In this document: piece after piece, positions 7,218 to 56,314 of the stretch
Position numbering within the stretch: the stretch's first letter is position 1
Layout of the letters: each line of letters begins with the position of its first letter
Virus record (IMG/VR): IMGVR_UViG_3300049002_000008
Coordinates: 1 to 62,475 of that record
DNA: 62,475 nt
Origin: a virus
Strand: one strand, 5' to 3'
Notes under the pieces: model-generated
What the model was told of the DNA's origin: nothing
Database searches by the model: none
The model's input: only the letters and a program-made list of their open reading frames with translations
Program-made: the position numbers and the translations under genes

Positions 7218-7429
7218 GTGCTCCCTGGCAGAAGCCGCGCAAGCTGTTGCCTGAGAATGAGCCCGCTGAGGCGCCAACGTTCTGCGGCAAGGAGACCGCC
7301 CACCGGGCGCATATATGGGACGAGGCCGAAGAGCCCATCGTCCTTCGGGCCGATGAGACGTATACGGCCAAGCTCCCCTTCGTGCGGCACTGGTGTAAGG
7401 GCTTCGGTCACCTGGAGGGGTACCTGTGA
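7214..7429 (+). CDS. Hypothetical protein (71 aa)
   Basis: ORF with high GC3. Its stop overlaps the dnaE start. Confidence 0.5.
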   Translation: MSAPWQKPRKLLPENEPAEAPTFCGKETAHRAHIWDEAEEPIVLRADETYTAKLPFVRHWCKGFGHLEGYL

Positions 7430-10400: not shown

Positions 10401-10566
10401 CCTCGTCATCACCGTGCACCGTTACGGAGGGCTGTACGCCAAGTACCAAGACCTGATCTGGGGCATGGCCCCGGACCGCGACCTACTGCTGGTGCGCGGG
10501 TACAAGCGAGCCGAATACCGTCGAGCCATCTACGCCACCGAGCTACATGTCCTGAACGTCGGATAG
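7426..10566 (+). CDS. dnaE: DNA polymerase III alpha subunit (DnaE-type, PHP domain)
   Basis: PHP motif NLHGHTTFSDGDG. Also GFTDYFLVVGDMVRWAKDNGIAVGPARGSAAASLVCYLLRITEVEPL and FNAAHCVSYG. Confidence 0.9.
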   Translation: MSDGYVNLHGHTTFSDGDGFMLPEDHVARVAELGQPGLALTEHGNISSHVQLEQAANKAGVQPVFGYEAYCESGDPRGQLKHHLTLLAATQEGYRNLQRLVTESWSNFRYKPTTTGEMLAEHSDGLIALSGCLGGRLATAMLGGKGEAEHAADLKAASRVAARMREVLGDRYYLEIQPHPTLAKQHALNLGNAELSRKMGIPMVATGDVHYPLPEQQDIYPLLHAIARGGNKATLEAASQGWEATIELTYKSAADVLKGLRGTGLGRREAAQAVGASLDILARCKVELPRLRELVFPSDIPGPRLFRRLLTEGWAYRGLNELTGRERKRYRERVRYELDLIESKGFTDYFLVVGDMVRWAKDNGIAVGPARGSAAASLVCYLLRITEVEPLQFPTLLFERFIDINRHDLPDIDLDFDDELRWRVEEYLVSRYGRERVGKIGTFTMYRGKNSLESVARVHGIPITAVEAVKDKLIERSSGDLRGNATIEDTIAMFPDVAKVFEQWPALKQAQRLEGNIKGFSVHAAGIVVANQPLTDSVAVYQRTDAKGNLIGEVLSIDKRDAEYLNALKIDVLGLTTMGVIRIILEMIGKDLEFLYRLPLDDEAVYEGFRRNEVIGIFQFDGRAMRSVNREVKPDTFMEVCDINALARPGPLHSGAAAEYIMVKHGKKKAERHGGVIDHITEHTNYQIVYQEQILQVVREVGGFSWEEAALIRKLISKKQGEQAFNRMMGKFMDGAASKGIGEVVAARIWKQLVTAGAYAFNAAHCVSYGMLAYWTMWLKQHHPLEFYCASLQKYDPKTKGFDLLKEAHAKNIRILPPHPLRSQATWSIEKGALRAGLVQVKGIGEKLADQMLRYREDEPDVYETLKAQSWEAFEQMRGFGPAKTATIQEFCADEDPFGILRMTKTLRRVRQWLKNHADDAGLFMAPHRSEDVPYEAKRGEYFWVGVVRDRNLKDIYELHRSRTGEELDPETVREPEYVNYAVITGEDETGPLVITVHRYGGLYAKYQDLIWGMAPDRDLLLVRGYKRAEYRRAIYATELHVLNVG
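8325..8349 (+). repeat. Polar C-tract/TCGCAG motif, copy 4
   Basis: ccccggcccccgcctctttcgcagg (read as PRLFRR). Confidence 0.7.
9871..9898 (+). repeat. Polar C-tract/TCGCAG motif, copy 5
   Basis: ctcccgccccaccccctccgctcgcagg (read as PPHPLRSQA). Confidence 0.8.
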
Positions 10567-14498: not shown

Positions 14499-14737
14499 TG
14501 CGCCGGGGAGGGCGTAGTTCATTGGGCCGCGGGTCCGTGTGGCCCAAGGCCTACCGGACGGCCGTAGAGGCCGCAACCATCGTGAGTGCCATTGGCGGGG
14601 CGCTCTGGGGGTCTGGGCGCGCCAGCGTCGGGATAAGCCTGGTCTGCGTCGGCATTGCGATGGTGGGAGCCGCGGCGGGGTACAACCGGCGGTGGCTCGG
14701 TCTGCAGGGCGAGCTGTTCGTGCGGAGGCGTCGGTGA
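14498..14737 (+). CDS. Membrane protein (79 aa)
   Basis: TGATG overlap with the upstream gene. Two hydrophobic segments (IVSAIGGALWG, ISLVCVGIAMVGAAA). Confidence 0.45.
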   Translation: MRRGGRSSLGRGSVWPKAYRTAVEAATIVSAIGGALWGSGRASVGISLVCVGIAMVGAAAGYNRRWLGLQGELFVRRRR

Positions 14738-14853
14738 GCAAGGGCCGACACATCCGAGGTAAGAAGAAGCCCCCGCACTGCGAGGTGTGCGGCGGTCCGC
14801 TGCGCCGACGTAAGGGCATGCTGATGTGCGACCACTGCAAGCGGGCAGCATGA
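14734..14853 (+). CDS. Small zinc-ribbon protein (39 aa)
   Basis: GTGA overlap upstream. CEVCGG ... CDHC pairs. Confidence 0.4.
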   Translation: MSKGRHIRGKKKPPHCEVCGGPLRRRKGMLMCDHCKRAA

Positions 14854-44951: not shown

Positions 44952-45010
44952 AACGCAATCGGCGCTTTGGGGCATGCCCCAGGTACCCCCGAAAGGGCAA
45001 GGTGGTTCTA

Positions 45011-45376
45011 ATGAAGTGGTTCGGACGTGATCCGGTCTGGTACACGAACCTGTTCGCGGTCCTCGTAATGGCGGCGGCCAGCTTCGGCCTCCACCTGACC
45101 GTTGACCAGCAGGGTGCGCTCAACGCGATCGCGCTGGCCCTCGCCGGGGTCATCATCGCAGTGCAGCTCCGCAGCGAGGGCCAGCTCGCGATGGCGGTGC
45201 AGTTGATGAAGGCGCTCGTCGCCCTGGGGCTGAGCTTCGGCCTGCACTTGAGCCCGGACCAGCAGTTCGTCCTCGTCAGCCTCGTGACGGCCATCGGCTC
45301 GGGCTTCCTGCGCACGCAGGTGACCGCACCGGTCCCGAAGACCATCGACGGTACCGTAGTGCCGCCTCGGCGGTAA
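45011..45376 (+). CDS. Multi-pass membrane protein (holin candidate)
   Basis: Three or four hydrophobic segments. ATG 45011 follows SD aaggtgg; the ORF is open from GTG 45002. Confidence 0.5.
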   Translation: MKWFGRDPVWYTNLFAVLVMAAASFGLHLTVDQQGALNAIALALAGVIIAVQLRSEGQLAMAVQLMKALVALGLSFGLHLSPDQQFVLVSLVTAIGSGFLRTQVTAPVPKTIDGTVVPPRR

Positions 45377-45408: not shown

Positions 45409-45461
45409 GCGGGGATCCGTGGCCAGGGCTGGCAGTGGTCACGGATCTCCGCTTTTCTCTT
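45409..45461 (+). terminator. Rho-independent terminator at the end of the structural/lysis block
   Basis: 13-bp stem gcggggatccgtg / cacggatctccgc followed by ttttctctt. Confidence 0.75.
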
Positions 45462-45504
45462 GCGCTTCTTAGAGATCTCAGATAGAATTGGTCTGGTGGA
45501 CAAT

Positions 45505-45534: not shown

Positions 45535-45600
45535 TTGCGGATCTGATAGTCGTCTGCTAGGGTTGCCCTGTTGACAACTCCACAGACAGCCGGGAGGCAC
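45535..45600 (+). promoter_or_regulatory. Early cassette A: sigma70-like promoter plus start-associated leader
   Basis: TTGCGG-N17-TAGGGT (45535-45563). GACAGCCGGGAGGCAC (45585-45600) lies 3 nt before ATG 45604. Confidence 0.65.
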
Positions 45601-45603
45601 ACA

Positions 45604-45930
45604 ATGCAGCTTGACGAGTATGGCTACGCGGAGCACCTGACCAGCGGCGTACGTTGCGGCAACCACCCCGGACTCCGCCCCGCCAAGATCTACCACGACG
45701 CGGCCGAGACGGTGCGGTACTGCTACGCTCAGCGCGAAGCTGAGCAGGCCGAGCAGCGTGCGGAGCAGGCAGTAGAGCTGGCGTACGAGCGGCACCTCGA
45801 GGACGCAGGCTGGCGCGAGGCCGAAGCTCAAGAGCGATACGAGCAGCAGATGGGCATGATCTCCTTCCAGGAAGCTTGGCAGCGGGCGGACCTGGAGAAC
45901 GGGCCAGGCTACACCGGCCCGAGGAGCTGA
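45604..45930 (+). CDS. Early protein with an N-terminal Cys/His motif (108 aa)
   Basis: GVRCGNHPGLRPAKIYHDAAETVRYCY, paralogous to the N-terminus of the 49908 product. Confidence 0.6.
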   Translation: MQLDEYGYAEHLTSGVRCGNHPGLRPAKIYHDAAETVRYCYAQREAEQAEQRAEQAVELAYERHLEDAGWREAEAQERYEQQMGMISFQEAWQRADLENGPGYTGPRS

Positions 45931-45941
45931 GAGAGTCATCG

Positions 45942-46012
45942 CGGGGTCCTTGCCAAGTCGGCCGGGACCCCGTAGTGTTCTCACCATCAGCACAACGACA
46001 GCCGGGAGGCAC
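45942..46012 (+). promoter_or_regulatory. Early cassette B: hairpin, promoter and leader
   Basis: Hairpin cggggtcc/ggaccccg. TTGCCA-N17-TAGTGT (45950-45978). GACAGCCGGGAGGCAC at 45997-46012. Confidence 0.7.
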
Positions 46013-46015
46013 CAA

Positions 46016-46339
46016 ATGGACCGCATCGACCACACCAGCCACCAGCACCCCGCCACCCCCGCCGCCCGTAAGGCGTGCCGCAAGGCCCAGCGCTCGACCA
46101 CCTGGTACGGCTCGCCCGCCCCGCTGCCGCAGCCCATCGAGGTGCAGTTCGTCCTGAAGACCGGCAAGACCTGCCGGGTGCTGTTCGACCAGTACCAGAA
46201 CCCCACGCTGTTCGTGCAGGCGCATGAGCAGGGCTGGGACCGCACCCGCACCGTGAACCAGGCCATCAGCGAGGCCATCCACGGCGTGTTCGAGACCTAC
46301 GGCGTCGGCACCGTGGAGACCTACCGCGTGGTGAGCTAG
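46016..46339 (+). CDS. Early hypothetical protein (107 aa)
   Basis: Leader-defined ATG. HQHPATPAARKACRKA motif. Confidence 0.6.
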   Translation: MDRIDHTSHQHPATPAARKACRKAQRSTTWYGSPAPLPQPIEVQFVLKTGKTCRVLFDQYQNPTLFVQAHEQGWDRTRTVNQAISEAIHGVFETYGVGTVETYRVVS

Positions 46340-46364
46340 CAGGAGAAATGAGAAACTCGTCGCT

Positions 46365-46439
46365 GGGGCCTTGCGCCCCGGTGACGACTCGGCTAGTGTT
46401 CTTCATGTAAGGCAAACAACACAGACAGCCGGGAGGCAC
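46365..46439 (+). promoter_or_regulatory. Early cassette C
   Basis: Hairpin ggggc/gcccc. TTGCGC-N17-TAGTGT (46371-46399). GACAGCCGGGAGGCAC at 46424-46439. Confidence 0.7.
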
Positions 46440-46442
46440 CCC

Positions 46443-46943
46443 ATGGCACGCAAGCTTTGCGAGTTCTGCAACACCCGCCCCGCCACCAGTCAGAACCGTG
46501 GCTCGATCAGCATCAGCGCCTGCGAGCCCTGCGAAACCGAAGCGGGCTACGAAAACGAGCACAGCGACGGCAAGTGCGGCGGCGTCGAGGGTGGCCGCTG
46601 CTGGATCTGCCTGCCGGAGCTGAACCGGGCGCAGGCCACCTACGTCAAGCAGGAGCGCAAGGGCCACCACTCGCCCCGCCGCCCCCAGATCAACCACCGC
46701 GCTTGCAGCCACGCGCAGACCCCGCTGGCGCGCCGCACCTGCCGGAAGGCGTTCTGGGCCGCCAAGGCCACCGAGCAGGCCGCTCCGGTCACTATGGTCG
46801 GCAAGGCCGTTACCTGGGTCGGATCCACCGACAAGGTGTTGGGCGGCATCGTGATCAAGGAGCTGGAGGGCGGCAAGGTCATGGTGCGCAGCATCAAGGG
46901 CACTCCGGTCCGGGTTGCGGCCGAGAAGCTGCGCCTGGTGTAG
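46443..46943 (+). CDS. Early Cys-rich zinc-finger protein (166 aa)
   Basis: CEFC..CEPC..C..CWIC. HAQTPLARRTCRKA motif shared with the 46016 product. Confidence 0.6.
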   Translation: MARKLCEFCNTRPATSQNRGSISISACEPCETEAGYENEHSDGKCGGVEGGRCWICLPELNRAQATYVKQERKGHHSPRRPQINHRACSHAQTPLARRTCRKAFWAAKATEQAAPVTMVGKAVTWVGSTDKVLGGIVIKELEGGKVMVRSIKGTPVRVAAEKLRLV

Positions 46944-47075
46944 TAGTGGAGCCGCCCCGGGGCTGTGCATCGGCCCTGGGGCAGGTATGGTTGCCAAGCA
47001 CCGAGGGGAGGTGGGCAACATGCGCGACGGATACGGCAGGGACTTCGGCTGGGGCTGAGCCCGCTGAAGTAGTCA

Positions 47076-47159
47076 GGACCCCGGGGTTGCACATGACCCC
47101 GGGGTCCGCTACTGTTCTCATCAGCGGGGCAGTACGGCCCCAAGACAGCCGGGAGGCAC
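47076..47159 (+). promoter_or_regulatory. Early cassette D
   Basis: 11-bp hairpin ggaccccgggg/ccccggggtcc. TTGCAC-N17-TACTGT (47087-47115). GACAGCCGGGAGGCAC at 47144-47159. Confidence 0.7.
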
Positions 47160-47162
47160 CCA

Positions 47163-47630
47163 ATGACCAGCAACATGAAGCTCCGTCTGGCCCTTACCGC
47201 CATCGTGTGCGGCGCCGCGTTCTACGTCAGCTACCGGCACATCGTCACGGTCGCCCTGGCCAGCGGGAACACCGCCGACACCGCCTTCGTGTACCCGCTG
47301 ACCATAGACGCCATGATCCTCGTCAGCGCGGTCACCCTGGTGGCCAGCACGGGCGTCAACAAGATGGCCAAGCTGTGGGCCATGATCGGCCGGTACTTCG
47401 GCTTCACCGCTACGATCTACTGCAACCTGGCCGCTGGGCACTTCACCAGCGTGGCTGGCGCCATCGTCAACATGATCCCCGCGCTGGCCCTGATCATCAC
47501 GGTCGAACTGCTGGTGTACGGCTGGAAGGCCACCCCCGCCGCCCGTCCCTTGCAGGCCCGCAAGGCCACCCCCTCCAAGAAGGCCACCGCCAAGGCCACC
47601 AGCCCCGCCAGGCTGGCCAGCGTCAAGTAA
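47163..47630 (+). CDS. DUF2637-like multi-pass membrane protein
   Basis: Four hydrophobic segments and a basic C-terminal tail. AAFYVSYRHI pattern. Confidence 0.5.
   Translation: MTSNMKLRLALTAIVCGAAFYVSYRHIVTVALASGNTADTAFVYPLTIDAMILVSAVTLVASTGVNKMAKLWAMIGRYFGFTATIYCNLAAGHFTSVAGAIVNMIPALALIITVELLVYGWKATPAARPLQARKATPSKKATAKATSPARLASVK
47531..47556 (+). repeat. Polar C-tract motif, copy 18 (variant CTTGCAGG)
   Basis: cacccccgccgcccgtcccttgcagg. Confidence 0.55.
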
Positions 47631-47641
47631 GCCACCGCCAG

Positions 47642-47667
47642 CAGGGGCGCCCTACGGGGCGCCCCTG
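47642..47667 (+). terminator. Terminator-like GC hairpin
   Basis: caggggcgcc-ctacgg-ggcgcccctg. Confidence 0.5.
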
Positions 47668-47776
47668 AGACGACGTAGGCCGATGGTAGGCCCGAGGGGC
47701 ACACCTCGACCTACCCCGGGGCGCCCAGGCCCGCAGAATCGATCTGAGCGGGCTGCGAGAGAGCGGGCGGGACGCC

Positions 47777-47849
47777 TTGCATCTCATCGGACGCTGTGCC
47801 ATAGTGGTCCCAGCGCGGTGCACGGCACCGCCGGACAGCCGGGAGGCAT
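47777..47849 (+). promoter_or_regulatory. Early cassette E
   Basis: TTGCAT-N19-TAGTGG. GACAGCCGGGAGGCAT (47834-47849) lies 1 nt before ATG 47851. Confidence 0.55.
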
Positions 47850-47850
47850 C

Positions 47851-48027
47851 ATGTACGACGTGGGCACCGTAGCGGAGGGCGTCGCAGACGCTGCCATCGA
47901 CTGGGCCTTTGAAGAGGGCGATGTGGCGGATGCCAGCGCCATTACCGAGACCCCTGGCCAGGCCGAGTTTTACCTCATCGTAGGCGACCAGCGCTTCCTC
48001 GTTACCCTTGTTGAGGTGACCGAGTGA
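47851..48027 (+). CDS. Early acidic protein (58 aa)
   Basis: Leader-defined ATG. Confidence 0.55.
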   Translation: MYDVGTVAEGVADAAIDWAFEEGDVADASAITETPGQAEFYLIVGDQRFLVTLVEVTE

Positions 48028-48158
48028 ACACCCTGCTGGCCGCCTTCGCGGCATTGCCGGGTCTGGCCGTGGCGCATCCTGCGCCCGCTGCTGGCCTCGC
48101 GGCCGTCTGCCTGGCTCTGCTGGGCGGGCTGTGCTACCTAGTGGTTCGCAACCCGTAG
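48024..48158 (+). CDS. Small membrane protein (44 aa)
   Basis: GTGA overlap upstream. Hydrophobic throughout. Confidence 0.4.
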   Translation: MNTLLAAFAALPGLAVAHPAPAAGLAAVCLALLGGLCYLVVRNP

Positions 48159-48169
48159 GAGAAAGTCCG

Positions 48170-48242
48170 GCGGGGTCCTTGTGGCCCCGCTCCACCCCAT
48201 GCTAGTGTTCTCACAACAGCAACACCGACCGCCGGGAGGCAC
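48170..48242 (+). promoter_or_regulatory. Early cassette F
   Basis: Hairpin gcgggg/ccccgc. TTGTGG-N18-TAGTGT (48179-48208). GACCGCCGGGAGGCAC at 48227-48242. Confidence 0.65.
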
Positions 48243-48245
48243 ACC

Positions 48246-48584
48246 ATGAACGTTCTCGTCACCGCCACCAGCACCGCGACCCCCGCCACCTTCCTCGCAG
48301 ACCTGGCCAGCGGCACTGTGGTCCTGCACAAGGAGCGCGACAACGGCACCACCCGCCGCATCCACTTCCTGGCCCCGGGCACCGAGGCCCGCGAGCTGGC
48401 CGAGTACGTCGAGGCGCAGCGCGACAACGGCCTGACCATGAAGGCCATCTCCGCCGAGTTGCACCTCAGCACCGCTGCTACCCGGCGCGCGCTGAACGAC
48501 TTGATCCTCACCCGCGAGTTCGAGGACATGGACGCCGAGGAAATCGAGGGCCTGCTGTTGGGCGCCGAGGACCTGGCCGCCTGA
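48246..48584 (+). CDS. Early helix-turn-helix DNA-binding protein (112 aa)
   Basis: LTMKAISAELHLSTAATRRALNDL is HTH-like. Confidence 0.5.
   Translation: MNVLVTATSTATPATFLADLASGTVVLHKERDNGTTRRIHFLAPGTEARELAEYVEAQRDNGLTMKAISAELHLSTAATRRALNDLILTREFEDMDAEEIEGLLLGAEDLAA
48280..48300 (+). repeat. Polar C-tract/TCGCAG motif, copy 19
   Basis: cccccgccaccttcctcgcag (read as PATFLAD). Confidence 0.65.
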
Positions 48585-48598
48585 GAACCGGACACGGT

Positions 48599-48667
48599 GG
48601 GGCGCTGGCCTTAGGGCTGGCGCCCCGCTACTGTGACAGTAACGACCACCGATGCCCCGGGAGGGTG
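48599..48667 (+). promoter_or_regulatory. Early cassette G (degenerate)
   Basis: Hairpin ggggcgc/gcgcccc. TACTGT at 48629-48634. Variant leader gatgccccgggagggtg before GTG 48672. Confidence 0.45.
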
Positions 48668-48671
48668 CAAA

Positions 48672-49166
48672 GTGAGAAGGCGTACACTGACAGGCCTAGG
48701 CATTGCCCTGCTGGTGGGTATTGCTTGCGACGCGGGCAAGGTGGGGCCGCACATCGACGTGCCGAAGAAGGGCACCGACCCGGACCAGCCCATGGACGCC
48801 GTCGAAGGTCCCGACGACTGGCTGGCGGACGATGGTAGCCAGATCTGGGGTGCCAACATCACCGTTTGGGTAGAGAAGTCTTCTGGCCCGACTACGGTGG
48901 ACGTAGTTGTCACAGATCACAGCGACGGCAACAGGTCGATAGCGACCAACACGTGGGTCGTTGAGTACGGCCGTTTCGTGTGTCCGGTGGCCTACCCCGC
49001 CCGCCATGACATCAGCTTCAAGATCACGGCGAAGGCCCACCACCCCTCCTCGCGGGGATTCATCACGGTGCGCGAAGGCGGGAACTTCAAGTGGCGGTCC
49101 TCGGGTGCGCTCACGTTCAACAAGCGCACCGAGGTCGAGCTGGTCTGCAACTCCAAGCGCCGATGA
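48672..49166 (+). CDS. Putative secreted lipoprotein (164 aa)
   Basis: Signal-like RRRTLTGLGIALLVGIAC with a Cys at a lipobox-like position. Confidence 0.45.
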   Translation: MRRRTLTGLGIALLVGIACDAGKVGPHIDVPKKGTDPDQPMDAVEGPDDWLADDGSQIWGANITVWVEKSSGPTTVDVVVTDHSDGNRSIATNTWVVEYGRFVCPVAYPARHDISFKITAKAHHPSSRGFITVREGGNFKWRSSGALTFNKRTEVELVCNSKRR

Positions 49167-49360
49167 CGGCCACCGGTGCGGTGCTCTCCCTGGCAGCGGT
49201 TCTGCTCGGGTTTGCATTGCTGATCATCCTAGTCTCGTACCTGTCGACGCGCTTCCAGCGCTGGCAGGACTGGCGCTTCGCACGGCCGGTCAAGCGGCGC
49301 AAGTGGGGGCCGCTCGCCAACCTGGCGCTCGTGTGGCACTACGTAGCGAAGCGCAAGTAA
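49163..49360 (+). CDS. Small membrane protein (65 aa)
   Basis: ATGA overlap upstream. TM segment VLSLAAVLLGFALLIILVSYL. Confidence 0.45.
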   Translation: MTATGAVLSLAAVLLGFALLIILVSYLSTRFQRWQDWRFARPVKRRKWGPLANLALVWHYVAKRK

Positions 49361-49366
49361 GCGTGG

Positions 49367-49432
49367 CGGGGCGCCTTGCCAAAGGGCGGGCGCCTTGCTA
49401 CTGTTCTCCTAACACCGACCGCCGGGAGGCAA
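49367..49432 (+). promoter_or_regulatory. Early cassette H
   Basis: GC hairpin. TTGCCA-N17-TACTGT (49376-49404). GACCGCCGGGAGGCAA at 49417-49432. Confidence 0.7.
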
Positions 49433-49434
49433 TC

Positions 49435-49656
49435 ATGCGCAAGCCCACCAGCTCAGCCCCCAAGCCGGACCTGGTCGCCCGCGCGAAGGCGCTGGCGAAG
49501 ACGTACTACTGCGACAACTACCACCAGCACGAGCCCCACCCAACCACGCATTACATGTCCTCGTGGCTGGGCGGTGGCATCGAGACCATGATCTGCCCCG
49601 GGCACCCCACCGACGACACCAAGGCCAACTTCGACACCTGCGTAAAGGCGCTGTGA
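49435..49656 (+). CDS. Early hypothetical protein (73 aa)
   Basis: Leader-defined ATG. Confidence 0.55.
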   Translation: MRKPTSSAPKPDLVARAKALAKTYYCDNYHQHEPHPTTHYMSSWLGGGIETMICPGHPTDDTKANFDTCVKAL

Positions 49657-49658
49657 CC

Positions 49659-49823
49659 ATGCTGAAGGCAACGAAGGACCTGCGCAGGGGCGACGTGGTC
49701 GACATCGACGAGGAGTACTATCAGGTGTACCGCGTCGAGGGCGACGTGGTGCAGTGGCTGGACGGCACCAAGCTCGAGGGCAACGGCACCGACGAGCCCT
49801 TGTGGGAGGTAGTGAACGCCTGA
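49659..49823 (+). CDS. Early hypothetical protein (54 aa)
   Basis: ATG lies 3 nt after the upstream stop. Confidence 0.45.
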   Translation: MLKATKDLRRGDVVDIDEEYYQVYRVEGDVVQWLDGTKLEGNGTDEPLWEVVNA

Positions 49824-49832
49824 GATAATCTT

Positions 49833-49905
49833 GGCCCCGGGGTTGCCAACGGCTCCGGGGCCGACTACTGTTCTCGTATGGGTAGCAACGACAGCCGGGA
49901 GGCCA
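49833..49905 (+). promoter_or_regulatory. Early cassette I
   Basis: Hairpin ggccccgg/ccggggcc. TTGCCA-N17-TACTGT (49843-49871). GACAGCCGGGAGGCCA at 49890-49905. Confidence 0.7.
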
Positions 49906-49907
49906 AC

Positions 49908-50714
49908 ATGAACACCACCACCACCGCGCAGGGCGTACGCTGCGGCAACCACGGCCGCGGGGCGCACGTCTACCACGCGAACAGCGCCGAGGTCAGGTTC
50001 TGCTACCAGAGCCAGACGCGTCCAGTCAGCGCCCCGCCCGCCGCCGCTCCCTCGCAGGCGCCCCGCAACGCGGACGAGGCCCGCAGCGCCAGCATGCAGC
50101 GCCTGGCCAACCAGACCAGCCCGTTCTTCGAGCGCCACGCCAGCGAGGGGCGGGTGCGCCTGATCACCGCGCTGGTTGAGGAGCACCTCACGCAGCCCGA
50201 GGACGGGGTGCTGGCCGAGGCCATCGTCAAGGCGCTGCACGAGGGCATGAGCGACAGCTTCGCCAAGAAGGTCATCGAACAGTTGCTGGTACTGAAGACG
50301 CAGCGCAAGGCGGCGGCGGCCAAGGCCAGCTACGCCAGCGAGAACACCGCGGCCAGCGCCAGCGCGGAGGCCCGCAAGCTGGTGGCCCGTGTGATGGGCG
50401 AGGCCAACGAGGGCAACTTCGCGATCGAGGTCGACGGCAAGACCCGGTTCTACCGCATCAGCAAGCGGGGCAAGAACAGCCGGACCCCCGGTAGCTGGAA
50501 GATCCAGGAGCGGGTCACCGACATGTTGCTGCCGCGAGCGAATGCCATGCTGGGCACGGTATGCGCGGCCATCCTGGAGATGGGTGTCGAGGCCAGTGGG
50601 CGCCTGTTCGCGGACCGGCTGCACCAGTGCCGCACTTGCGGCGCCAGCCTGACCGATGACACCGGCAACCCGTACTACGAGATGGGCTACGGCCCGGAGT
50701 GCGGCGGCAAGTAG
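49908..50714 (+). CDS. Early protein with an N-terminal CGNH motif and a C-terminal zinc-ribbon-like motif (268 aa)
   Basis: GVRCGNHGRGAHVYHANSAEVRFCY. C-terminal CRTCGASLTDDTGNPYYEMGYGPEC. Confidence 0.6.
   Translation: MNTTTTAQGVRCGNHGRGAHVYHANSAEVRFCYQSQTRPVSAPPAAAPSQAPRNADEARSASMQRLANQTSPFFERHASEGRVRLITALVEEHLTQPEDGVLAEAIVKALHEGMSDSFAKKVIEQLLVLKTQRKAAAAKASYASENTAASASAEARKLVARVMGEANEGNFAIEVDGKTRFYRISKRGKNSRTPGSWKIQERVTDMLLPRANAMLGTVCAAILEMGVEASGRLFADRLHQCRTCGASLTDDTGNPYYEMGYGPECGGK
50031..50058 (+). repeat. Polar C-tract/TCGCAG motif, copy 20
   Basis: gccccgcccgccgccgctccctcgcagg (read as PPAAAPSQA). Confidence 0.75.
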
Positions 50715-50728
50715 CCTAGAGCCGACGC

Positions 50729-50753
50729 AGGGGCGCCCACCACGGGCGCCCCT
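50729..50753 (+). terminator. Terminator-like GC hairpin
   Basis: aggggcgccc-accac-gggcgcccct. Confidence 0.5.
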
Positions 50754-50815
50754 TGTCGCGCCTAGGGCACGGCGCCTGCTGGCCTTAGAATCGGTTACCG
50801 CGGGCAGACCGCAGC

Positions 50816-50886
50816 TTGCGCCGGTAGCGCAGGTGTGGTTGTATGTTCTTATAAGAGAAATGCCCCAACCGACAGCCGGGAGGCAA
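50816..50886 (+). promoter_or_regulatory. Early cassette J
   Basis: TTGCGC, about N19, then GTATGTTCTT. GACAGCCGGGAGGCAA at 50871-50886. Confidence 0.55.
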
Positions 50887-50888
50887 TC

Positions 50889-51608
50889 ATGGCTATGATC
50901 GACACCATCGTTGCGTTGCTCGCCAAGGCCGAGCGCACGGACAACGAGCACGAGCGGGACGCGTACCTCGCCAAGGCGCAGGAGCTGCAAACCAAGTACG
51001 CCATCGAGCAGGGCATGCTCGACGCCGCGCGGCCCCAGCAGGAGCGCGAGGCCATCAATCAGATGCGGTTCTGCGAGGAGCGCAACACCCCGCTGATCAA
51101 GGCCAAGCGTCAGTTGGTCCTGTGGCTGGCCGACGTCAACAACTGCTTCGTGATCTTGGGCCACCGGCGGGCGTACCTGGAGGTCACCGGACACCAGAGC
51201 GACCTCGTTATGGTGCAGCACTTGTACGCCAGCATCCTTCTGCAGATGCAGCGCGCCATGCAGCAAGCCGAGGGGCGCGGCGACGTGGTTGGGGCGCTGG
51301 CAGGCTGGCGCGTCAGCTACGCTCACGGGTACGTGCGTCGGGTAGCGGTGCGCCTGCTCGCTGCCAAGACCCGCCAGATGGCCGAGACCAGCACCGGGAC
51401 CCCAGGGAGCGCCCTGGTGTTGGTCAGCCGCGCTGGGGTGGCCAAGCAGGCCGCCGAAGGGCTGTACGGCGACCTGAAGAAGGCTCGCAAGATCCCGAAC
51501 AGCGACAACAACGAGTTCGGCCGGTACGCGGGCAATCGCGACGGGCACAACGCGGACCTTGGCGGAGACCGCATCGGTGCGGCAACCACCCGAAGGGAAC
51601 TGTCATGA
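50889..51608 (+). CDS. DUF2786-like protein (239 aa)
   Basis: N-terminal IVALLAKAERTDNEHERDAYLAKAQEL pattern. Confidence 0.55.
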   Translation: MAMIDTIVALLAKAERTDNEHERDAYLAKAQELQTKYAIEQGMLDAARPQQEREAINQMRFCEERNTPLIKAKRQLVLWLADVNNCFVILGHRRAYLEVTGHQSDLVMVQHLYASILLQMQRAMQQAEGRGDVVGALAGWRVSYAHGYVRRVAVRLLAAKTRQMAETSTGTPGSALVLVSRAGVAKQAAEGLYGDLKKARKIPNSDNNEFGRYAGNRDGHNADLGGDRIGAATTRRELS

Positions 51609-51886
51609 GCAAGAACTGGGAGCTGTACCCAGACGGCCACGTGGAGGAGGCGCCCGTGAGGGTGCCCCACCCCGTTCCGCACAACGTCAAGTTCCGACAC
51701 GCCGAAGAGGTCAAGGTCTGCGACAGCGAGCTGTGCCCACACCTGGGCAACGTGATCGAGCCTGGGACCAAGTACGCCCGCGTCCAGCGCATCGGCCCTC
51801 GTAGGAAGGCCGTGACAGAGTTCTTCCACGCCAAGTGCTACGACAACGAGTTTGACGAGGGCAGTCATGCCGAAATGGCTAGCTGA
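51605..51886 (+). CDS. Hypothetical protein (93 aa)
   Basis: ATGA overlap upstream. Confidence 0.5.
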   Translation: MSKNWELYPDGHVEEAPVRVPHPVPHNVKFRHAEEVKVCDSELCPHLGNVIEPGTKYARVQRIGPRRKAVTEFFHAKCYDNEFDEGSHAEMAS

Positions 51887-52358
51887 CCCACGCGCCTGCT
51901 TGGCGCACATCGACAGCAGCGGCGCATGCCGCTTGACCGCAGAAAGGGCAGACATGAAGGCCAAGCCGAAGGCGCACAAGCCGCGCGTGGCCAAGGTGGG
52001 CAAGGACGGCATGATTGAGCCGATCAGCGAGCTGAACCGCAAGCACCTGCGCATCGCGCTGGCGCGGCACGTGCACCCCAGCGACGTTGAGCGGGCGGTC
52101 AAGCGGCTTGTGAAAGTGAACGGTCTCCGGCCCCTCCGCCCCGCCTCGCAGGCCTGCATGGGCAAGAGCATTCTGGAGATGCTGTGGGATGAGTTGGACG
52201 CCATCGTCGAGCGGCTCATGGCTGGCGGGGCAGCCGAGGAGGACAAGGGTAAGGCGCAGGGCGTCGCCTACGCCATCGCCGTCATCGAGAACCCCTACCT
52301 GCCCAACGTCGAGCGCATCCGCGACGAGGCTATGGACCGCTGGGAGGCCGACCAGTGA
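51867..52358 (+). CDS. Hypothetical protein (163 aa)
   Basis: ATG 51867, with a 20-nt overlap onto the upstream gene. Confidence 0.5.
   Translation: MPKWLADPRACLAHIDSSGACRLTAERADMKAKPKAHKPRVAKVGKDGMIEPISELNRKHLRIALARHVHPSDVERAVKRLVKVNGLRPLRPASQACMGKSILEMLWDELDAIVERLMAGGAAEEDKGKAQGVAYAIAVIENPYLPNVERIRDEAMDRWEADQ
52131..52152 (+). repeat. Polar C-tract/TCGCAG motif, copy 21
   Basis: cccctccgccccgcctcgcagg (read as LRPASQA). Confidence 0.7.
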
Positions 52359-52573
52359 GCGGCCACTGGCACGACACCGTGCACCACGAGAACGGTGTGC
52401 CGTGGTGGGAGGCTAAGCTTCCCCGACGCTGGCACCTGTGCTACGTGCAGACGTGGGGCCTGGTGGACGGATGGATGTTCGCTCGCTGCCCTTGCGGCGC
52501 AGACCGTCTAGACGTGGCGGGCTACTGGCACAACAAGAACAGCCGGAGGAAGGAGTGCAATGGCCAAGCATAA
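52355..52573 (+). CDS. Hypothetical Cys/His/Trp-rich protein (72 aa)
   Basis: GTGA overlap upstream. Confidence 0.45.
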   Translation: MSGHWHDTVHHENGVPWWEAKLPRRWHLCYVQTWGLVDGWMFARCPCGADRLDVAGYWHNKNSRRKECNGQA

Positions 52574-52910
52574 GTGGTTCGCCCGGGAGGTTCTCAGCGA
52601 ACGGCAGGCCGTCGAGGGCCATGACCCGGGCTGTACCTGGCCGCGCGGCGAGCCGTGCCTCAGGTTCAGTACCGACGGCACCCGTGCTGGCGCTGAGATT
52701 GCGCACACTATGGGCACCACGAGCGAGCTGGTCATAGCCCAGGGTAAGGCGCCCAACGACGTCATCCCGCCGCCCTTCGTCAGCGACGTGGCCGCCGAGC
52801 AGGCCGATTGGGACGGCGAGCCTGGTCCGCCGGTGGACCACGAGCGCCCGCGGATGTACCCGACGAAGGACCTGTCCTGGGGCGTCTATCCCGAAGACGA
52901 ACTGGACTAG
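52560..52910 (+). CDS. Hypothetical protein (116 aa)
   Basis: ORF from the track. Confidence 0.5.
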   Translation: MAKHKWFAREVLSERQAVEGHDPGCTWPRGEPCLRFSTDGTRAGAEIAHTMGTTSELVIAQGKAPNDVIPPPFVSDVAAEQADWDGEPGPPVDHERPRMYPTKDLSWGVYPEDELD

Positions 52911-52966
52911 AGATCTCCTAGCGCTACCTCACGAGCGCTGCCAACATGTTCACGTACCCCGTTCAC

Positions 52967-52982
52967 GACAGCCGGGAGGCAC
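52967..52982 (+). promoter_or_regulatory. Early cassette K (leader only)
   Basis: GACAGCCGGGAGGCAC lies 4 nt before GTG 52987, preceded by ACATGTTCAC. Confidence 0.5.
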
Positions 52983-52986
52983 CCCC

Positions 52987-53802
52987 GTGACCCGCCAAGA
53001 GCGTACTGCCCGCGCAACCCGCAAAGCGGCCGAGCAGGCCGAAACCATCATCGCCGAGGCTACTAGCAAGGCCAGGCGCGGAGACCAGGACAAGCGCTGC
53101 CCGGTGTGCCGCACGGTCGGAGACCTGGCCTGGCTCAAGGCCAACGGGCACGGTAAGCGATGCACCAGCACACCGCGCGTGCTCGCCGAGGCTATCGGTG
53201 CTCAGATCGATGCTAAGCCCCGAGCCAAGGTGACCGCAGGGGCGAGGGTGGTGCGCAAGCCGGACGCGGCCAGTGACCCGCTGGGCGCCCAGTGCCTCGA
53301 GCTACGCGAGCAGGGGCTCAGCTGGATGGCCATCGGCGCGAAGCTGGGGCTACCTGGCGCGAAGAGCGGGGCTGCCGCCGCGCGCAAGCTGTACGCCGCG
53401 CACACTGGCCAGAGCCACCGAGCCGCGCCCGGTCTGCCCAAGGCGCCTCGGGCCAGGCGGCACGCCGCACAGGTGGGCAGCAAGGCCAGCCGTCGCGAGC
53501 GGGTGCAGCTTGGTACCGGGCTCATCTCCGACGACATGCCCGACGAAGCGGTCGTGACCCTGTTGGCGGGCAAGACGATCCAGTGGGCCATCGACCTGAA
53601 GCGACTGGCCGATGGCCGCGGCGAACCCGAGTGGGCGGAGCAGGAGGCAAAGGTGCATCCCACGTACATCCGCATCGAGTTCGGCAAGCTGGAAGAGCGG
53701 TGCGTGCGCTTCCGCGAGCACCTGGGCGAGGACAAGCACGGAAACGTGATCAGCGGCCCTACCCGCACCGTCCGCCTCGCCGCTATCCACACGGTGCGCT
53801 GA
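52987..53802 (+). CDS. DNA-binding protein (271 aa)
   Basis: CPVC motif. HTH-like LREQGLSWMAIGAKLGL. Basic. Confidence 0.5.
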   Translation: MTRQERTARATRKAAEQAETIIAEATSKARRGDQDKRCPVCRTVGDLAWLKANGHGKRCTSTPRVLAEAIGAQIDAKPRAKVTAGARVVRKPDAASDPLGAQCLELREQGLSWMAIGAKLGLPGAKSGAAAARKLYAAHTGQSHRAAPGLPKAPRARRHAAQVGSKASRRERVQLGTGLISDDMPDEAVVTLLAGKTIQWAIDLKRLADGRGEPEWAEQEAKVHPTYIRIEFGKLEERCVRFREHLGEDKHGNVISGPTRTVRLAAIHTVR

Positions 53803-54241: not shown

Positions 54242-54366
54242 TGGTCGAGTGGTGGCAGTACACGCGGTGCCCAAGGTGCTTCTGCGCCTGGGCCTGCGTG
54301 TGGCTGCGCGGCCCGCTCAGGTACTGCAAGCGCCCGCACGCAGGGAGGAAGCGCCATGAAGGCTAG
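54241..54366 (+). CDS. Possible Cys-rich micro-protein (41 aa)
   Basis: TAGTG overlap upstream. VVEWWQYTRCPRCFCAWACVWLRGPLRYCKRPH. High GC3. Overlaps the SNF2 start by 11 nt. Confidence 0.35.
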   Translation: MVEWWQYTRCPRCFCAWACVWLRGPLRYCKRPHAGRKRHEG

Positions 54367-56314
54367 GCTGCGCGGCAACCGCATCGTTGTGGAGTTCGTC
54401 AGTGCTCGGGACGAGGCGTCCACGCTGGTGCGTGGTGGGCGTTGGCTGAAGGGCTCGCCGGAGTACAGCTACCCGCTGAGCATTGCCAAGTGCCAGGAGA
54501 TGCGCCGCGCGTGGGGCAAGGACCTGCACGTTGAGCGAGCCCTCGGCGATTGGTACCGCACAGCTACCACAGCTCGCGACCAGCAGGCCGAGAGGGCAGA
54601 GGCTACCGAAGCCACCAGCCTGCCGAACCTAGAGCGCCTAGCGCCCGAGCTGCTGGCCTGGATTGGCCCCGACCAGCGGGCAGCGGCCAGCTGGATCGCA
54701 CACGCTTACGAAGGCGCTGGCATCCTCGCGGACGAGCCGGGTCTCGGCAAGACCTACTCGACGGTAGCTGGCTTGTACGAGCTGAACCCCGTCGGCCCCG
54801 TCCTCATCGTGTGCCCGAAGATCAGCGTGAAGACAGTATGGCAACGGCACCTCTCGGGCGGTCCCTGGCCGGTCTACGCCGCCCGGGGCACGCGCGCCCA
54901 GCGCCAGCAGGTGCTCGACGCCTTCTTCGCTGACCGCGCGTCTACCAAGGTGCTCATCGTAGTGGCCGAGATGCTGCGCGCGCAGGGAACCCTCGATAAG
55001 TTGGGCGGTGGCAAGGGCACCCGCTTCCGGGTCACCGGCTTCGACTATCCCGAGCTGTTCGGCATCACCTGGACGGTGGCGGTACTGGACGAGAGCCAGA
55101 AGCTGCTCGGAGCCCTCACCATCACCAAGGGCAACCTGATGAGCCATGGCCTGCGACACCTGGACGTGGCGCCCGCACCACTGGGCCTGCGCCTGATGGT
55201 GTCGGGAACCCCGTTCGGTCGAGGTGGCGACGTGGAGGGCTTCTTCGGTCACCTGCACTGGGGCTGGCCGAAAGAGTTCACCGCCTTCTGGCGCTGGGCC
55301 GACGAGAACTTCGAAGTGACCGAGGACAGAGTGTTCATCCGGGGCGGCCACGGGGCGACCCAGATCGTGCGCAAGGTGGGCCGGTTGAAGGGCGGCAAGA
55401 GCGAGGAGCAGTTCTTCAAAGACCTAGGGTCGCGCGTGATGCGGCGCACCCTGGAGGAGGTGAGCCCAGCACACCGAGGTCTGCGTGGTTACGAAGAGGT
55501 CGTGTGTGAGATGACCGACAAGCAGCGAGCGCAGTACTCCGCATTCGTGGCAAACGCCGAGGTGGCCGTAGAAGGTGGCATCATCACCGCAATCGGCAGC
55601 CTGGCGGAGATGACCCGGGCTCGCCAGCTCGCCAACGGCGTCCTGCGAAAGGAGGGGGAGGGGAAGGGCTCTGTCCGGTACACCGGTGAGTCCGGAAAGC
55701 TCGATGCCGTGATGCAGCGCCTCGAGGAGATGGGCCTGCGCGGCACCCCGAACCCCAACCGTCGAAAGGTGGTCATCGCCAGCCAGTGGAACGCCTATCT
55801 CGAGGCGCTCTGCCAACGGCTCGACATGGAGGGCACCCCGTACCATCTGATGACCGGTAGTAGCAGTGACGTCGCGCGGGATCGTATGATGGACGAGTTC
55901 CAGGCCGAAGGAGGGCCTCGTCTGTTCATTATGAACGGACGGGCGGGCGGCTTCAGCATCACCTTGGACGCCGCCGACTGGCTGTTCCAGCTGGACGAGA
56001 TGTTCCCACCGGAAGCCAACGAGCAGCTCCACCGGCGCATCTTTCGGCGCAGCCGGGTTCACGAAGCGCGGGTGGTGTACTTCCGCAGCGAAGACAGCAT
56101 CGACGTGAACATCGCCGGGGATGTGGCCGTCACATTGGCCGAGCAGTTGAAGGTGCTCGACGCCCGCCGCGGCCTCAACACCGTGCGCGAGCTGCTCCGT
56201 ACCACCAGCGACGGCCGACGGCCCTACCTGGGCAGTACCAAGGCGCGCAAGTGCCCGCAGTGCGGGGCGCGGCGCAACATGTTCCACGAGCCTGGATGCG
56301 AGGGAGAGAAATGA
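54356..56314 (+). CDS. SNF2-family helicase/translocase
   Basis: Motif I ADEPGLGKT, motif II AVLDESQKL, and C-terminal helicase motifs (GGFSITL, QLHRRIFR). Confidence 0.8.
   Translation: MKARLRGNRIVVEFVSARDEASTLVRGGRWLKGSPEYSYPLSIAKCQEMRRAWGKDLHVERALGDWYRTATTARDQQAERAEATEATSLPNLERLAPELLAWIGPDQRAAASWIAHAYEGAGILADEPGLGKTYSTVAGLYELNPVGPVLIVCPKISVKTVWQRHLSGGPWPVYAARGTRAQRQQVLDAFFADRASTKVLIVVAEMLRAQGTLDKLGGGKGTRFRVTGFDYPELFGITWTVAVLDESQKLLGALTITKGNLMSHGLRHLDVAPAPLGLRLMVSGTPFGRGGDVEGFFGHLHWGWPKEFTAFWRWADENFEVTEDRVFIRGGHGATQIVRKVGRLKGGKSEEQFFKDLGSRVMRRTLEEVSPAHRGLRGYEEVVCEMTDKQRAQYSAFVANAEVAVEGGIITAIGSLAEMTRARQLANGVLRKEGEGKGSVRYTGESGKLDAVMQRLEEMGLRGTPNPNRRKVVIASQWNAYLEALCQRLDMEGTPYHLMTGSSSDVARDRMMDEFQAEGGPRLFIMNGRAGGFSITLDAADWLFQLDEMFPPEANEQLHRRIFRRSRVHEARVVYFRSEDSIDVNIAGDVAVTLAEQLKVLDARRGLNTVRELLRTTSDGRRPYLGSTKARKCPQCGARRNMFHEPGCEGEK
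55642..55668 (-). repeat. Polar motif, inverted (minus-strand) copy A
   Basis: The + strand reads cctgcgaaaggagggggaggggaaggg. Its reverse complement is cccttcccctccccctcctttcgcagg. Confidence 0.65.

Follow-up and report, generated by a model that had tools for sequence, protein, structure and literature searches.

Start-associated sequences (SASs) have been known since 2011 from Cluster K mycobacteriophages (Pope et al. 2011, PMC3203893), a therapeutically relevant group (TM4, ZoeJ, Adephagia derivatives), and an account of their mechanism is still lacking. In the extended form (ESAS) found in Cluster K, SigA-like -35 and -10 boxes (17-18 nt apart) and an inverted repeat lie upstream of the SAS (PMC11373665). 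SAS/ESAS pairing is also described for Cluster EF Microbacterium phages (Jacobs-Sera et al. 2020, PMC7302621). Papers from 2024-2025 still give the function of the SAS as unknown (PMC11373665). Here we describe a SAS-like 16-mer at the starts of ten genes of an uncultivated actinobacterial phage. The sequence we analyzed is the whole of IMG/VR record IMGVR_UViG_3300049002_000008 (62,475 nt; hereafter, the window), and the 16-mer lies in a block at 45.5-53 kb. Comparison to metagenomic relatives indicates that part of the conservation around the Shine-Dalgarno (SD) sequence within this motif (GCC...GGC) is intramolecular complementarity, which covaries across the relatives.

The motif, GAC(A/C)GCCGGGAGGCA(C/A), searched for as GACMGCCGGGAGGCAM, has 10 copies in the window with at most one mismatch, while 0.01 are expected from shuffled sequences. 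The copies begin at 45585, 45997, 46424, 47144, 47834, 48227, 49417, 49890, 50871, and 52967. All 10 are on the + strand, within 45.58-52.98 kb, and each stops 1-4 nt short of an ATG or GTG, with GGGAGG at 5-9 nt from the start codon. Across the whole window, we found no match at a gene start beyond 45.5-53 kb. The motif is present at the first genes after gaps, and the overlapping or coupled genes at 48024, 49163, 51605, and 52560 do not have it. It is the only SD at hand for the genes that carry it. The flanks of GGGAGG are GAC(A/C)GCC and CAC, and pairing with the actinobacterial anti-SD (…CCUCCUUUCU-3'), which may not be the host's, is open to GGGAGG alone. (A search of the window for a complementary, anti-SAS sequence gave only chance matches with 3 mismatches.) A preliminary description of this DNA had claimed that the 16-mer recurs at about 11 gene starts, that it is confined to this block, and that the flanks are conserved beyond what could pair with the 3' end of 16S rRNA. 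All of this was borne out. The copy at 48672, which it had called degenerate, is instead a compensated variant of a small stem (CCC-GGGA-GGG).

The motif shares with the Cluster K SAS (PMC3203893) its copy number, its position at the ribosome-binding site (RBS), its SD core, and its conservation beyond the anti-SD, as well as its restriction to the non-structural arm, its single orientation, and its association with intergenic gaps. Both are short asymmetric repeats in 10-19 copies that lie a few nucleotides upstream of start codons, and the preliminary description's analogy to Cluster K was apt. The sequences are unrelated (GGGATAGGAGCCC against GACAGCCGGGAGGCAC): the motif has no sequence match to the consensus from Cluster K (GGGATAGGAGCCC) or from Cluster EF (GGGAAAGGACCCC). 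It is the same kind of element from a different sequence family, and we will call it a SAS as well.

In the window, most SAS copies are the last part of a repeated cassette. The cassettes, and the two features that precede them, are (folding energies dG are in kcal/mol):

45411..45461, + strand: terminator-like hairpin (GGGGATCCGTG...CACGGATCTCC) with a T-rich run, read from the sequence, directly after the holin-like gene
45460..45488, + strand: predicted promoter TTGCGC-N17-TAGAAT, read from the sequence, the first of two in tandem ahead of cassette 1
45535..45603, + strand: cassette 1; TTGCGG 45535-45540, N17, TAGGGT 45558-45563, SAS 45585-45600 (stem GCC 45589-91 / GGC 45596-98), ATG 45604
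45931..46015, + strand: cassette 2; hairpin 45931-45982 (dG -35.4, z -6.1) with the -35 TTGCCA 45950-55 in its loop, -10 TAGTGT 45973-78 and then TCTC, SAS 45997-46012, ATG 46016
46342..46442, + strand: cassette 3; hairpin 46342-46404 (dG -31.9), TTGCGC 46371-76, TAGTGT 46394-99, a leader that includes GTAAGGCAA, SAS 46424-46439, ATG 46443
47056..47162, + strand: cassette 4; hairpin 47056-47120 (dG -37.9, z -6.4), TTGCAC 47087-92, TACTGT 47110-15, SAS 47144-47159, ATG 47163 of a gene for a DUF2637 membrane protein
47756..47850, + strand: cassette 5; hairpin 47756-47789, TTGCAT 47777-82, then CATAGT 47800-05 (17-nt spacer) or TAGTGG 47802-07 (19-nt spacer), SAS 47834-47849 (1 mismatch), ATG 47851
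48169..48245, + strand: cassette 6; short hairpin 48169-48191, TTGTGG 48179-84, 18-nt spacer, TAGTGT 48203-08, SAS 48227-48242 (GACCGCC variant), ATG 48246
48599..48671, + strand: cassette 7; hairpin 48599-48626 (dG -35), TACTGT 48629-34, SAS variant CCC-GGGA-GGG 48656-48665 (covariance model score 13.9 bits), GTG 48672
49360..49434, + strand: cassette 8; hairpin 49360-49405 (dG -32.6), TTGCCA 49376-81, TACTGT 49399-404, 13-nt leader, SAS 49417-49432, ATG 49435
49822..49907, + strand: cassette 9; hairpin 49822-49875 (dG -32.2, with outer GAGA/UCUC pairs), TTGCCA 49843-48, TACTGT 49866-71, SAS 49890-49905 (a GGCCA variant common to its orthologs), ATG 49908
50807..50888, + strand: cassette 10; hairpin 50807-50840, TTGCGC 50816-21, an atypical -10 region GTTGTATGTTC (TATGTT 50842-47, 20-nt spacer) that is kept in 7 genomes, SAS 50871-50886, ATG 50889 of a gene for a DUF2786 protein
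52967..52986, + strand: cassette 11; SAS 52967-52982, with no recognizable hairpin-promoter upstream, GTG 52987

We call the block "early" because it sits between the lysis genes, with the canonical terminator-like hairpin after them, and the replication genes. The hairpin at 45411..45461 is the boundary at which the late/lysis operon ends and the early block begins. The SAS of cassette 1 (45585) comes after this hairpin and after the tandem promoters with which the block appears to open (a near-consensus TTGCGC-N17-TAGAAT and then TTGCGG-N17-TAGGGT).

TASTGTTC, which includes the -10 box, has six exact copies, all on the + strand, between 45973 and 49873, and near copies at 47802 (TAGTGGTC), 50842 (TATGTTCT), and 48629 (TACTGTGA). 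The combination TTG-N20-TASTGT, with a 17-nt spacer, occurs five times (0.23 expected), and TTGCGG-N17-TAGGGT at 45535 makes a sixth cassette with this spacing. The spacer is longer in two cassettes: 18 nt after TTGTGG at 48179, and 19 nt from TTGCAT at 47777 to TAGTGG (alternatively, TTGCAT is 17 nt from CATAGT). A generic promoter scan, which relies on the E. coli consensus, called none of the cassettes. The leaders between the -10 box and the SAS are short (11-43 nt), CA-rich, and G-poor. Many cassettes have a second conserved leader element at 5-12 nt after the -10: GT(A/C)AGGCAAG, which takes the form CAGCAAC in the window's clade. This element is seen at 46406-46416 in the window and in the leaders of three relatives, L232, L233, and L238 (L233:1905-1920, L238:3955-3970). 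It is separate from the SAS and probably coincides with, or lies close to, the 5' terminus of the early mRNAs.

The hairpins between the genes have folding energies of -32 to -38 kcal/mol, with z of -4 to -6 in 6 of 9 intergenic regions. The stem begins at the upstream stop codon and ends at the -10 box, and the -35 box is in the loop or the 3' arm. In several cassettes, the TCT(C) that follows the -10 pairs with GAGA(A/G) directly after the upstream stop codon. This TCT(C) is kept only within the window's own clade and is absent from more distant relatives. The tail of the hairpin, UA(G/C)UGUUCUC (about 5 U in 10), is likewise peculiar to the window's clade; L232 and L233 have a GAG-type tail instead. 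The preliminary description had proposed repeated cassettes of a hairpin, a promoter, and a leader, with the -35 box inside the hairpin, and our analysis supports this anatomy, with the promoter read as one of the host's sigma-A type. Its spacer counts (17 nt in six cassettes and 18-19 nt in two) are correct, and its count of eight cassettes with a TA(G/C)TGT box roughly matches the six exact copies of TASTGTTC plus the near copies.

That description had also held that the coupling of the SAS to a promoter and hairpin sets this virus apart from Cluster K. Instead, the coupling is shared with the Cluster K ESAS (PMC11373665) and with Cluster EF (PMC7302621): in both Cluster K and the window, a subset of SASs have a SigA-like promoter and an inverted repeat upstream. 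The difference is in the repeats. The Cluster K repeats share a conserved 17-bp consensus and, in the published assessment, do not form RNA hairpins, which points to protein binding. In the window, the arms differ from one cassette to the next and only the structure is kept, so there is no sequence-conserved repeat like that of the ESAS. Also, Cluster K phages are temperate, while we saw no integrase in the window.

In Krampus (Cluster EF, MH271301; 35700-49185), we found ten near-invariant GGGAAAGGACCCC motifs at RBS positions, nine of them invariant, behind promoter-like …GTAGCGAAA…TAGAGT/TATAGT boxes. Krampus and the window have the same order of genes in the replication module (holin, helicase, RecB-like exonuclease, RecA-like protein, and primase), and their helicases are about 30% identical, so a distant evolutionary link between the window and Cluster EF is possible. 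However, Cluster EF has no GC hairpin that encloses the -35 box, its sites are scattered through the right arm instead of being packed between the lysis and helicase genes, and its SD is in a loop of about 7 nt with the G-rich arm on the 5' side. In the window, the SD forms the loop and the 3' arm. As a side observation, the ESAS of Cluster EF and the syntenic module suggest that a broad group of actinophages may have inherited the SAS habit from a common ancestor.

Another parallel is the early region of the Streptomyces phage phiC31, which, like the window, has many short units, each with a conserved promoter and inverted repeats or terminators. Unlike those of the window, the inverted repeats of phiC31 are sequence-conserved repressor operators, and its promoters are not known to be sigma-70-like. 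We know of no RBS-linked motif in phiC31. What appears to be new in the window is the sequence of the SAS, the hairpins that are conserved in structure only, a promoter nested in the hairpin throughout the family, and an account of the SAS flanks that is backed by covariation.

We then compared the window to twelve relatives from metagenomes, whose helicases range from 90% down to 44% identity. One is an IMG/VR contig, L226 (L006+L070), which is syntenic with the window at 70-82% nucleotide identity. The other eleven (L227-L234 and L238-L240) were found by a protein search with the helicase, whose identity to the window's ranges from 88% down to 44%, and many of these contigs are about 62 kb. 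(Scanning for the exact motif gave little: of 105 matches in viral contigs, the only true relative was one contig, and genome contigs gave only single chance matches. We rejected one viral match, a tandem array at the end of contig L014 (IMGVR_UViG_3300037100_000035, 14570-14813). Its unit of about 34 nt, …GGGACAGCCGGGAGGCAGCCGGGACAGGTCCACC…, contains the 15-mer by chance, and the sequence around the array is low in GC and unrelated to the window's phage family.) In every relative, a series of short genes occupies the interval from the holin to the helicase, and the first gene after each gap has the same layout as in the window. Each close relative has 8-13 copies of the SAS.

On the + strand, 113 of 131 CC[AG]GGAGG sites precede the start of an open reading frame (ORF). 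Across ten genomes, 85 of these 113 SASs have TTGNNN-N17/18-(T/C)ANNNT upstream, with a spacer of 17 nt in 59 cases, 18 nt in 25, and 19 nt in one. The -10 box is mostly TAGTGT or TACTGT and the -35 box is mostly TTGCGC or TTGCCA. The -10 box lies 11-43 nt from the SAS. As this distance varies and that from the SAS to the start codon is fixed (1-4 nt), the SAS goes with the start codon rather than with the promoter. The orthologs of the SAS at 52967, like that SAS itself, lack a hairpin-promoter. As a start-codon element that can occur without a hairpin-promoter, the SAS most likely acts on the mRNA, at the initiation of translation.

In 73 of 83 cassettes that have promoters, the -35 box is enclosed by at least 6 base pairs (median 16). 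At orthologous intergenic regions, the hairpin is kept while the sequences of its arms are entirely different (cassette 4 is an example). Because the layout is kept in twelve relatives while the hairpin arms change, this argues for selection on the structure of the hairpin. Also, one type of cassette precedes non-homologous genes in different relatives, which would fit a plug-in module for mosaic early genes.

In L239 and L240, the helicase gene has a promoter-like box and a SAS (CUACCC-GGGA-GGGG and UAGCC-GGGA-GGCC, at L239:9975-10000 and L240:9975-10000). The window's helicase has an ordinary RBS instead, so the set of SAS genes shifts between lineages. We also noticed a SAS-like site, ACCGCU-GGGA-GGCC (with one U·G pair), at 52335-52357 in the window, inside the 3' end of the upstream gene. 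It serves an overlapping gene with GTG at 52355 and is kept in L228 and L229. Coding sequence can thus harbor a SAS-like RBS.

The relatives show how the bases around GGAGG vary. These bases covary as a mini-stem: GCC-GGGA-GGC, CCC-GGGA-GGG, UACCC-AGGA-GGGUA, CUC-GGGA-GAG, and CGACC-GAGGA-GGUCG. Closer relatives carry the window's own motif, and the changes in distant relatives preserve the complementarity. GCC/GGC and CCC/GGG stems coexist within genomes (4 and 7 copies in L232, 1 and 9 in L233, 10 and 1 in the window), and the stem in L232 often gains a fourth pair, whose identity varies. In L233 and L238 the form is (U)ACCC-AGGA-GGGU(A), along with one UAGCC-AGGA-GGCCA. L239 and L240 have UACCC-GGGA-GGGU, AGCC-GGGA-GGCU, and CGACC-GAGGA-GGUCG, and also CUC-GGGA-GAG and GCUC-GGGA-GAGC, in which a change from G to A in the SD is matched by a change from C to U in the 5' arm. 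Overall, we estimate that there are about 8-10 distinct states that preserve pairing.

To quantify the covariation, we used all 113 start-associated CC[AG]GGAGG sites. Pair 3 of the stem is GC in 77 of them, CG in 17, GU/AU/UG in 4, and unpaired in 10, and its covariation is 0.125, as compared to 0.032 ± 0.009 in shuffled data. We also used a set that is blind to both arms. It takes every gene that comes first after a gap of 40 nt or more, lies before the helicase, and has RGGA in the RBS window (n = 131). In this set, pair 3 is GC in 71, CG in 42, AU in 2, UG in 2, and unpaired in 10. The covariation is 0.221, as compared to 0.075 ± 0.010 in shuffles, none of 500 of which attains the observed value, and at most 0.093 in slid controls. 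At least three consecutive flanking pairs are found at 83% of these sites, but at just 12% of 133 other RGGA-type RBSs from the same genomes. The preliminary description had argued that the conserved flanks point to recognition by something other than the 16S anti-SD. Covarying complementarity partly replaces this explanation, for GCC...GGC but not for the unpaired GAC(A/C) and CAC. (We rejected the idea of methylation or restriction at CCNGG, which CCGGG/CCAGG would match, because it leaves the covarying outer pairs unexplained.)

We propose, with moderate confidence, that the block consists of about 11 portable early cassettes in which the SD lies in a small local hairpin that works in cis as a standard RBS module. 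In this model, a GC-rich hairpin that begins at the upstream stop codon would end or stabilize the previous transcript and would shield the next promoter from read-through. Next would come a promoter of the host's sigma-A type, with TTGCNN in the loop or 3' arm of the hairpin and TA(G/C)TGT just past the stem, and then the CA-rich, G-poor leader of 11-43 nt. Finally, the SD (GGGAGG) would be clamped by a 3-bp mini-hairpin, GCC-GGGA-GGC (up to 5 bp in relatives). Together with its unstructured flanks, the mini-hairpin would be a cis-acting, portable ribosome-binding module on the mRNA. It could give diverse and often non-homologous early genes uniform initiation of translation, because one weak local structure would take the place of variable long-range pairing by the G-rich SD. 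The module could double as a common handle for a trans-acting factor. The anatomy of the cassettes, their statistical significance, their conservation in relatives, and the covariation of the arms are direct observations, and promoter activity, termination, and the effect on translation are predictions from these sequences.

The comparison shows that such cassettes are how a whole family of phages of about 62 kb, known only from metagenomes, organizes its early genes. The natural variation in the window's lineage, which the cultured clusters lack, is enough to indicate that conservation of the SAS is in part complementarity around the SD, which turns SAS function into a testable hypothesis. 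The compact cassettes of terminator, promoter, leader, and RBS might also be useful as portable expression parts for high-GC actinobacteria.

Several observations weigh against this model. The mini-stem is weak, at -3.4 to -5.5 kcal/mol (GCCGGGAGGC is at -3.4, or -4.9 with its flanks, and UACCCAGGAGGGUA is at -5.5), and the probability that it forms in the predicted leaders varies from 0.04 to 0.98. RNAalifold found no consensus structure in the arm-blind alignment, and counts of G·U versus A·C do not tell which strand pairs. Because orthology or duplication links many SAS copies to one another, independent compensatory events are far fewer than the counts given above. A covariance model separates the SAS only modestly: matches in coding regions, at 57915 and 20369, interleave with the true copies. 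The unpaired flanks are conserved by clade, which goes beyond pure structure (the window's clade has GAC(A/C) and CAC, and the distant one has CACUA). When the 5' arm was removed in silico, the energy to open the SD fell from 6.2 to 5.1, or by 1.1 kcal/mol, and its standard deviation across genes went from 1.64 to 2.0. This supports, weakly at best, a role for the arm in standardizing or insulating the SD: the effect is small and the sequences are not independent. Finally, the intergenic hairpins lack a strong U-tract, and a generic terminator scan called none of those in the cassettes. The preliminary description's idea that each hairpin is the terminator of the previous gene is plausible, given the start of the stem at the stop codon, but the U-tract is weak, the scan made no call, and the TCTC tail is missing from more distant relatives.

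The weakness of the stem brings up another explanation: an RNA-binding protein from the phage or the host may read the GGGA-loop hairpin and its flanks and switch early translation off (or on) together. The logic would be analogous to that of T4 RegA, which controls early mRNAs at their ribosome-binding sites, or to the MS2 coat protein operator, or to CsrA, which binds GGA in hairpin loops. This explanation would account for a stem that is too weak to matter much alone and yet covaries, and for clade-specific unpaired flanks (GACA/CAC or CACUA), which are expected with a co-evolving partner. Also, the site is carried by one regulon-like set of 10-13 genes, and the last of these encodes a widely-kept family of 271-amino-acid proteins with an Arg/Lys-rich segment, a Zn-ribbon, and a beta-barrel. 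On the other hand, none of the block proteins examined matches a known RNA-binding family, a Foldseek search with the model of the 271-amino-acid protein had no match below E = 0.1, and, to our knowledge, CsrA-type regulators are not known in Actinomycetota. Overall, we consider an RNA operator to be unlikely. A broader version seems a little less likely still: the mini-hairpin would be an RNA operator on all early mRNAs of this uncultivated actinophage lineage, read by a co-evolving phage protein (such as the 271-amino-acid one) that switches translation, or read-through of termination, en bloc, and the SASs of Clusters K and EF (with GGG...CCC around the SD) would be of the same kind. All three types of SAS do have GC-rich complementary outer triplets. 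But in Anaya (Cluster K), 13 SAS copies are invariant and 3 variants break the GGG/CCC symmetry, while the window's arms covary. Because the copies in Anaya and Krampus are near-invariant and Anaya's variants break the pairing, we do not extend the hairpin claim to those phages.

Another reading is that the SAS is just a strong SD, uniform because a promoter-leader module was duplicated recently or homogenized by gene conversion. Modular cassettes in front of unrelated genes do suggest spread by recombination, and many copies within a genome are identical. However, the core and arms are kept where coding DNA is about 70-80% identical and the helicase is 44-53% identical; derived states are common to orthologs (as with GGCCA at 49890 and L226:4186), contrary to homogenization; and neither the compensatory changes in the arms nor the contrast with other RBSs (83% versus 12%) would be expected. 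We consider this quite improbable. A DNA operator for a repressor or elongation blocker, with its location at the RBS being incidental, is slightly more improbable. The SAS does resemble the stoperators of Cluster A (PMC3203893, PMC9283540), which are also numerous, asymmetric, intergenic, and oriented with transcription, and it lies in short intergenic spaces downstream of promoters. But stoperators are DNA sites for the immunity repressor, are found genome-wide, and are not fixed to an SD or a start codon. In the window, the site keeps to within 1-4 nt of the start codon but lies at a variable 11-43 nt from the -10, and the motif holds the sole SD. Swaps of G:C to C:G between the arms within a genome fit pairing and not base-specific readout by a protein. 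Furthermore, we saw no integrase or repressor among the ORFs we examined, and the genes are all on one strand. Another thought is that C(GGGA)G is a GNRA-type tetraloop hairpin just past each early promoter, and so could be a boxB/nut-like site at which an N-like protein drives RNA polymerase through the intergenic hairpins into the replication or late genes. There is a strong hairpin after each gene, the genes are co-oriented so that read-through could drive the later ones, and the conserved 271-amino-acid protein starts with an Arg/Lys-rich helix. But lambda-type systems are not known to carry a nut site for each gene; they use one or two. Also, the site always coincides with an SD at the proper spacing from the start codon, the loop in L233 and L238 is AGGA, which is not GNRA, we recognized no boxA-like element, and Foldseek found no structural likeness between the model of the 271-amino-acid protein and known antiterminators. 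This makes antitermination very doubtful. Least probable of all is that the SAS marks early mRNAs for cleavage or inactivation at the SD by an endoribonuclease of the phage or the host. The precedent is T4 RegB, whose target is the GGAG of early-mRNA SDs and which requires 11 nt of context (PMC1702504). In both phages, an extended SD context that is common to early mRNAs could let one factor act post-transcriptionally, and the window's motif is confined to early genes and centered on GGGAGG. However, the site for RegB/S1 is single-stranded and A-rich 3' of the GGA, while the window's is GC-clamped, and neither a homolog of the nuclease (or repressor) nor any other nuclease candidate was found among the block's proteins. 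We view stoperators, lambda nut/boxB, and T4 RegB as analogies of logic only.

We also examined the proteins encoded in the block as potential regulators. The most conserved candidate is the 271-amino-acid family mentioned above (g52987, 52987-53802), which is kept in nearly all relatives examined, with orthologs in the loci of L226-L230 and L232-L234. Its N-terminus is a long Arg/Lys-rich helix (RQERTARATRKAAEQAE), followed by a CxxC…H…C Zn-ribbon, an invariant segment that resembles a helix-turn-helix (LSWMAIGAKLGLPGAK.GAA.ARKLY), and a beta-barrel at the C-terminus. Neither Pfam nor PHROG places it in a family. Comparing its AlphaFold model (pLDDT 84) to PDB with Foldseek gave no match below E = 0.12, and only weak matches that resemble Sm or chromo barrels. 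It is possible that this protein is an early regulator. More broadly, PHROGs and Pfam identified no RNA-binding or regulator family among more than 20 proteins from the block. The leads were sub-threshold Pfam matches in g48246 that resemble a winged helix-turn-helix, along with DUF2637 and DUF2786.

As to the rest of the genome, the alignment of a relative runs across the end of the window into its start, so the window is circularly permuted. Its G+C content is about 65% and all of its genes are on the + strand. The genes that place the block are:

68-2740, + strand: primase/helicase (PHROG)
7426-10566, + strand: DNA polymerase (PHROG)
18628, + strand: terminase (PHROG)
20095, + strand: portal (PHROG)
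26293, + strand: capsid (PHROG)
34734, + strand: tape measure (PHROG)
45002-45376, + strand: holin-like gene (phrog_9752)
54356-56314, + strand: SNF2 helicase (PHROG)
57656, + strand: PD-(D/E)XK exonuclease (PHROG)

The block is thus flanked by the holin on the upstream side and by the helicase, the exonuclease, and the primase on the downstream side. This location between lysis and replication genes supports the view that it is an early region. At the nucleotide level, a megablast search of the block and of window positions 1-25000 against GenBank phages gave no matches. The scan with Rfam 15 gave just two spurious matches to miRNA hairpins, far under the gathering score, and no tRNA was found in the window. 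At the protein level, the helicase is about 30% identical to helicases from Gordonia and Microbacterium phages.

Some genes of the block look like paralogs of each other. The proteins from g45604 (45604-45930) and g49908 (49908-50714) have a common N-terminal pattern, GVRCGNH…YH…VR(Y/F)CY, and those from g46016 (46016-46339) and g46443 (46443-46943) are both weak matches to phrog_18656. In orthologs of g49908, the C-terminus matches DUF6011.

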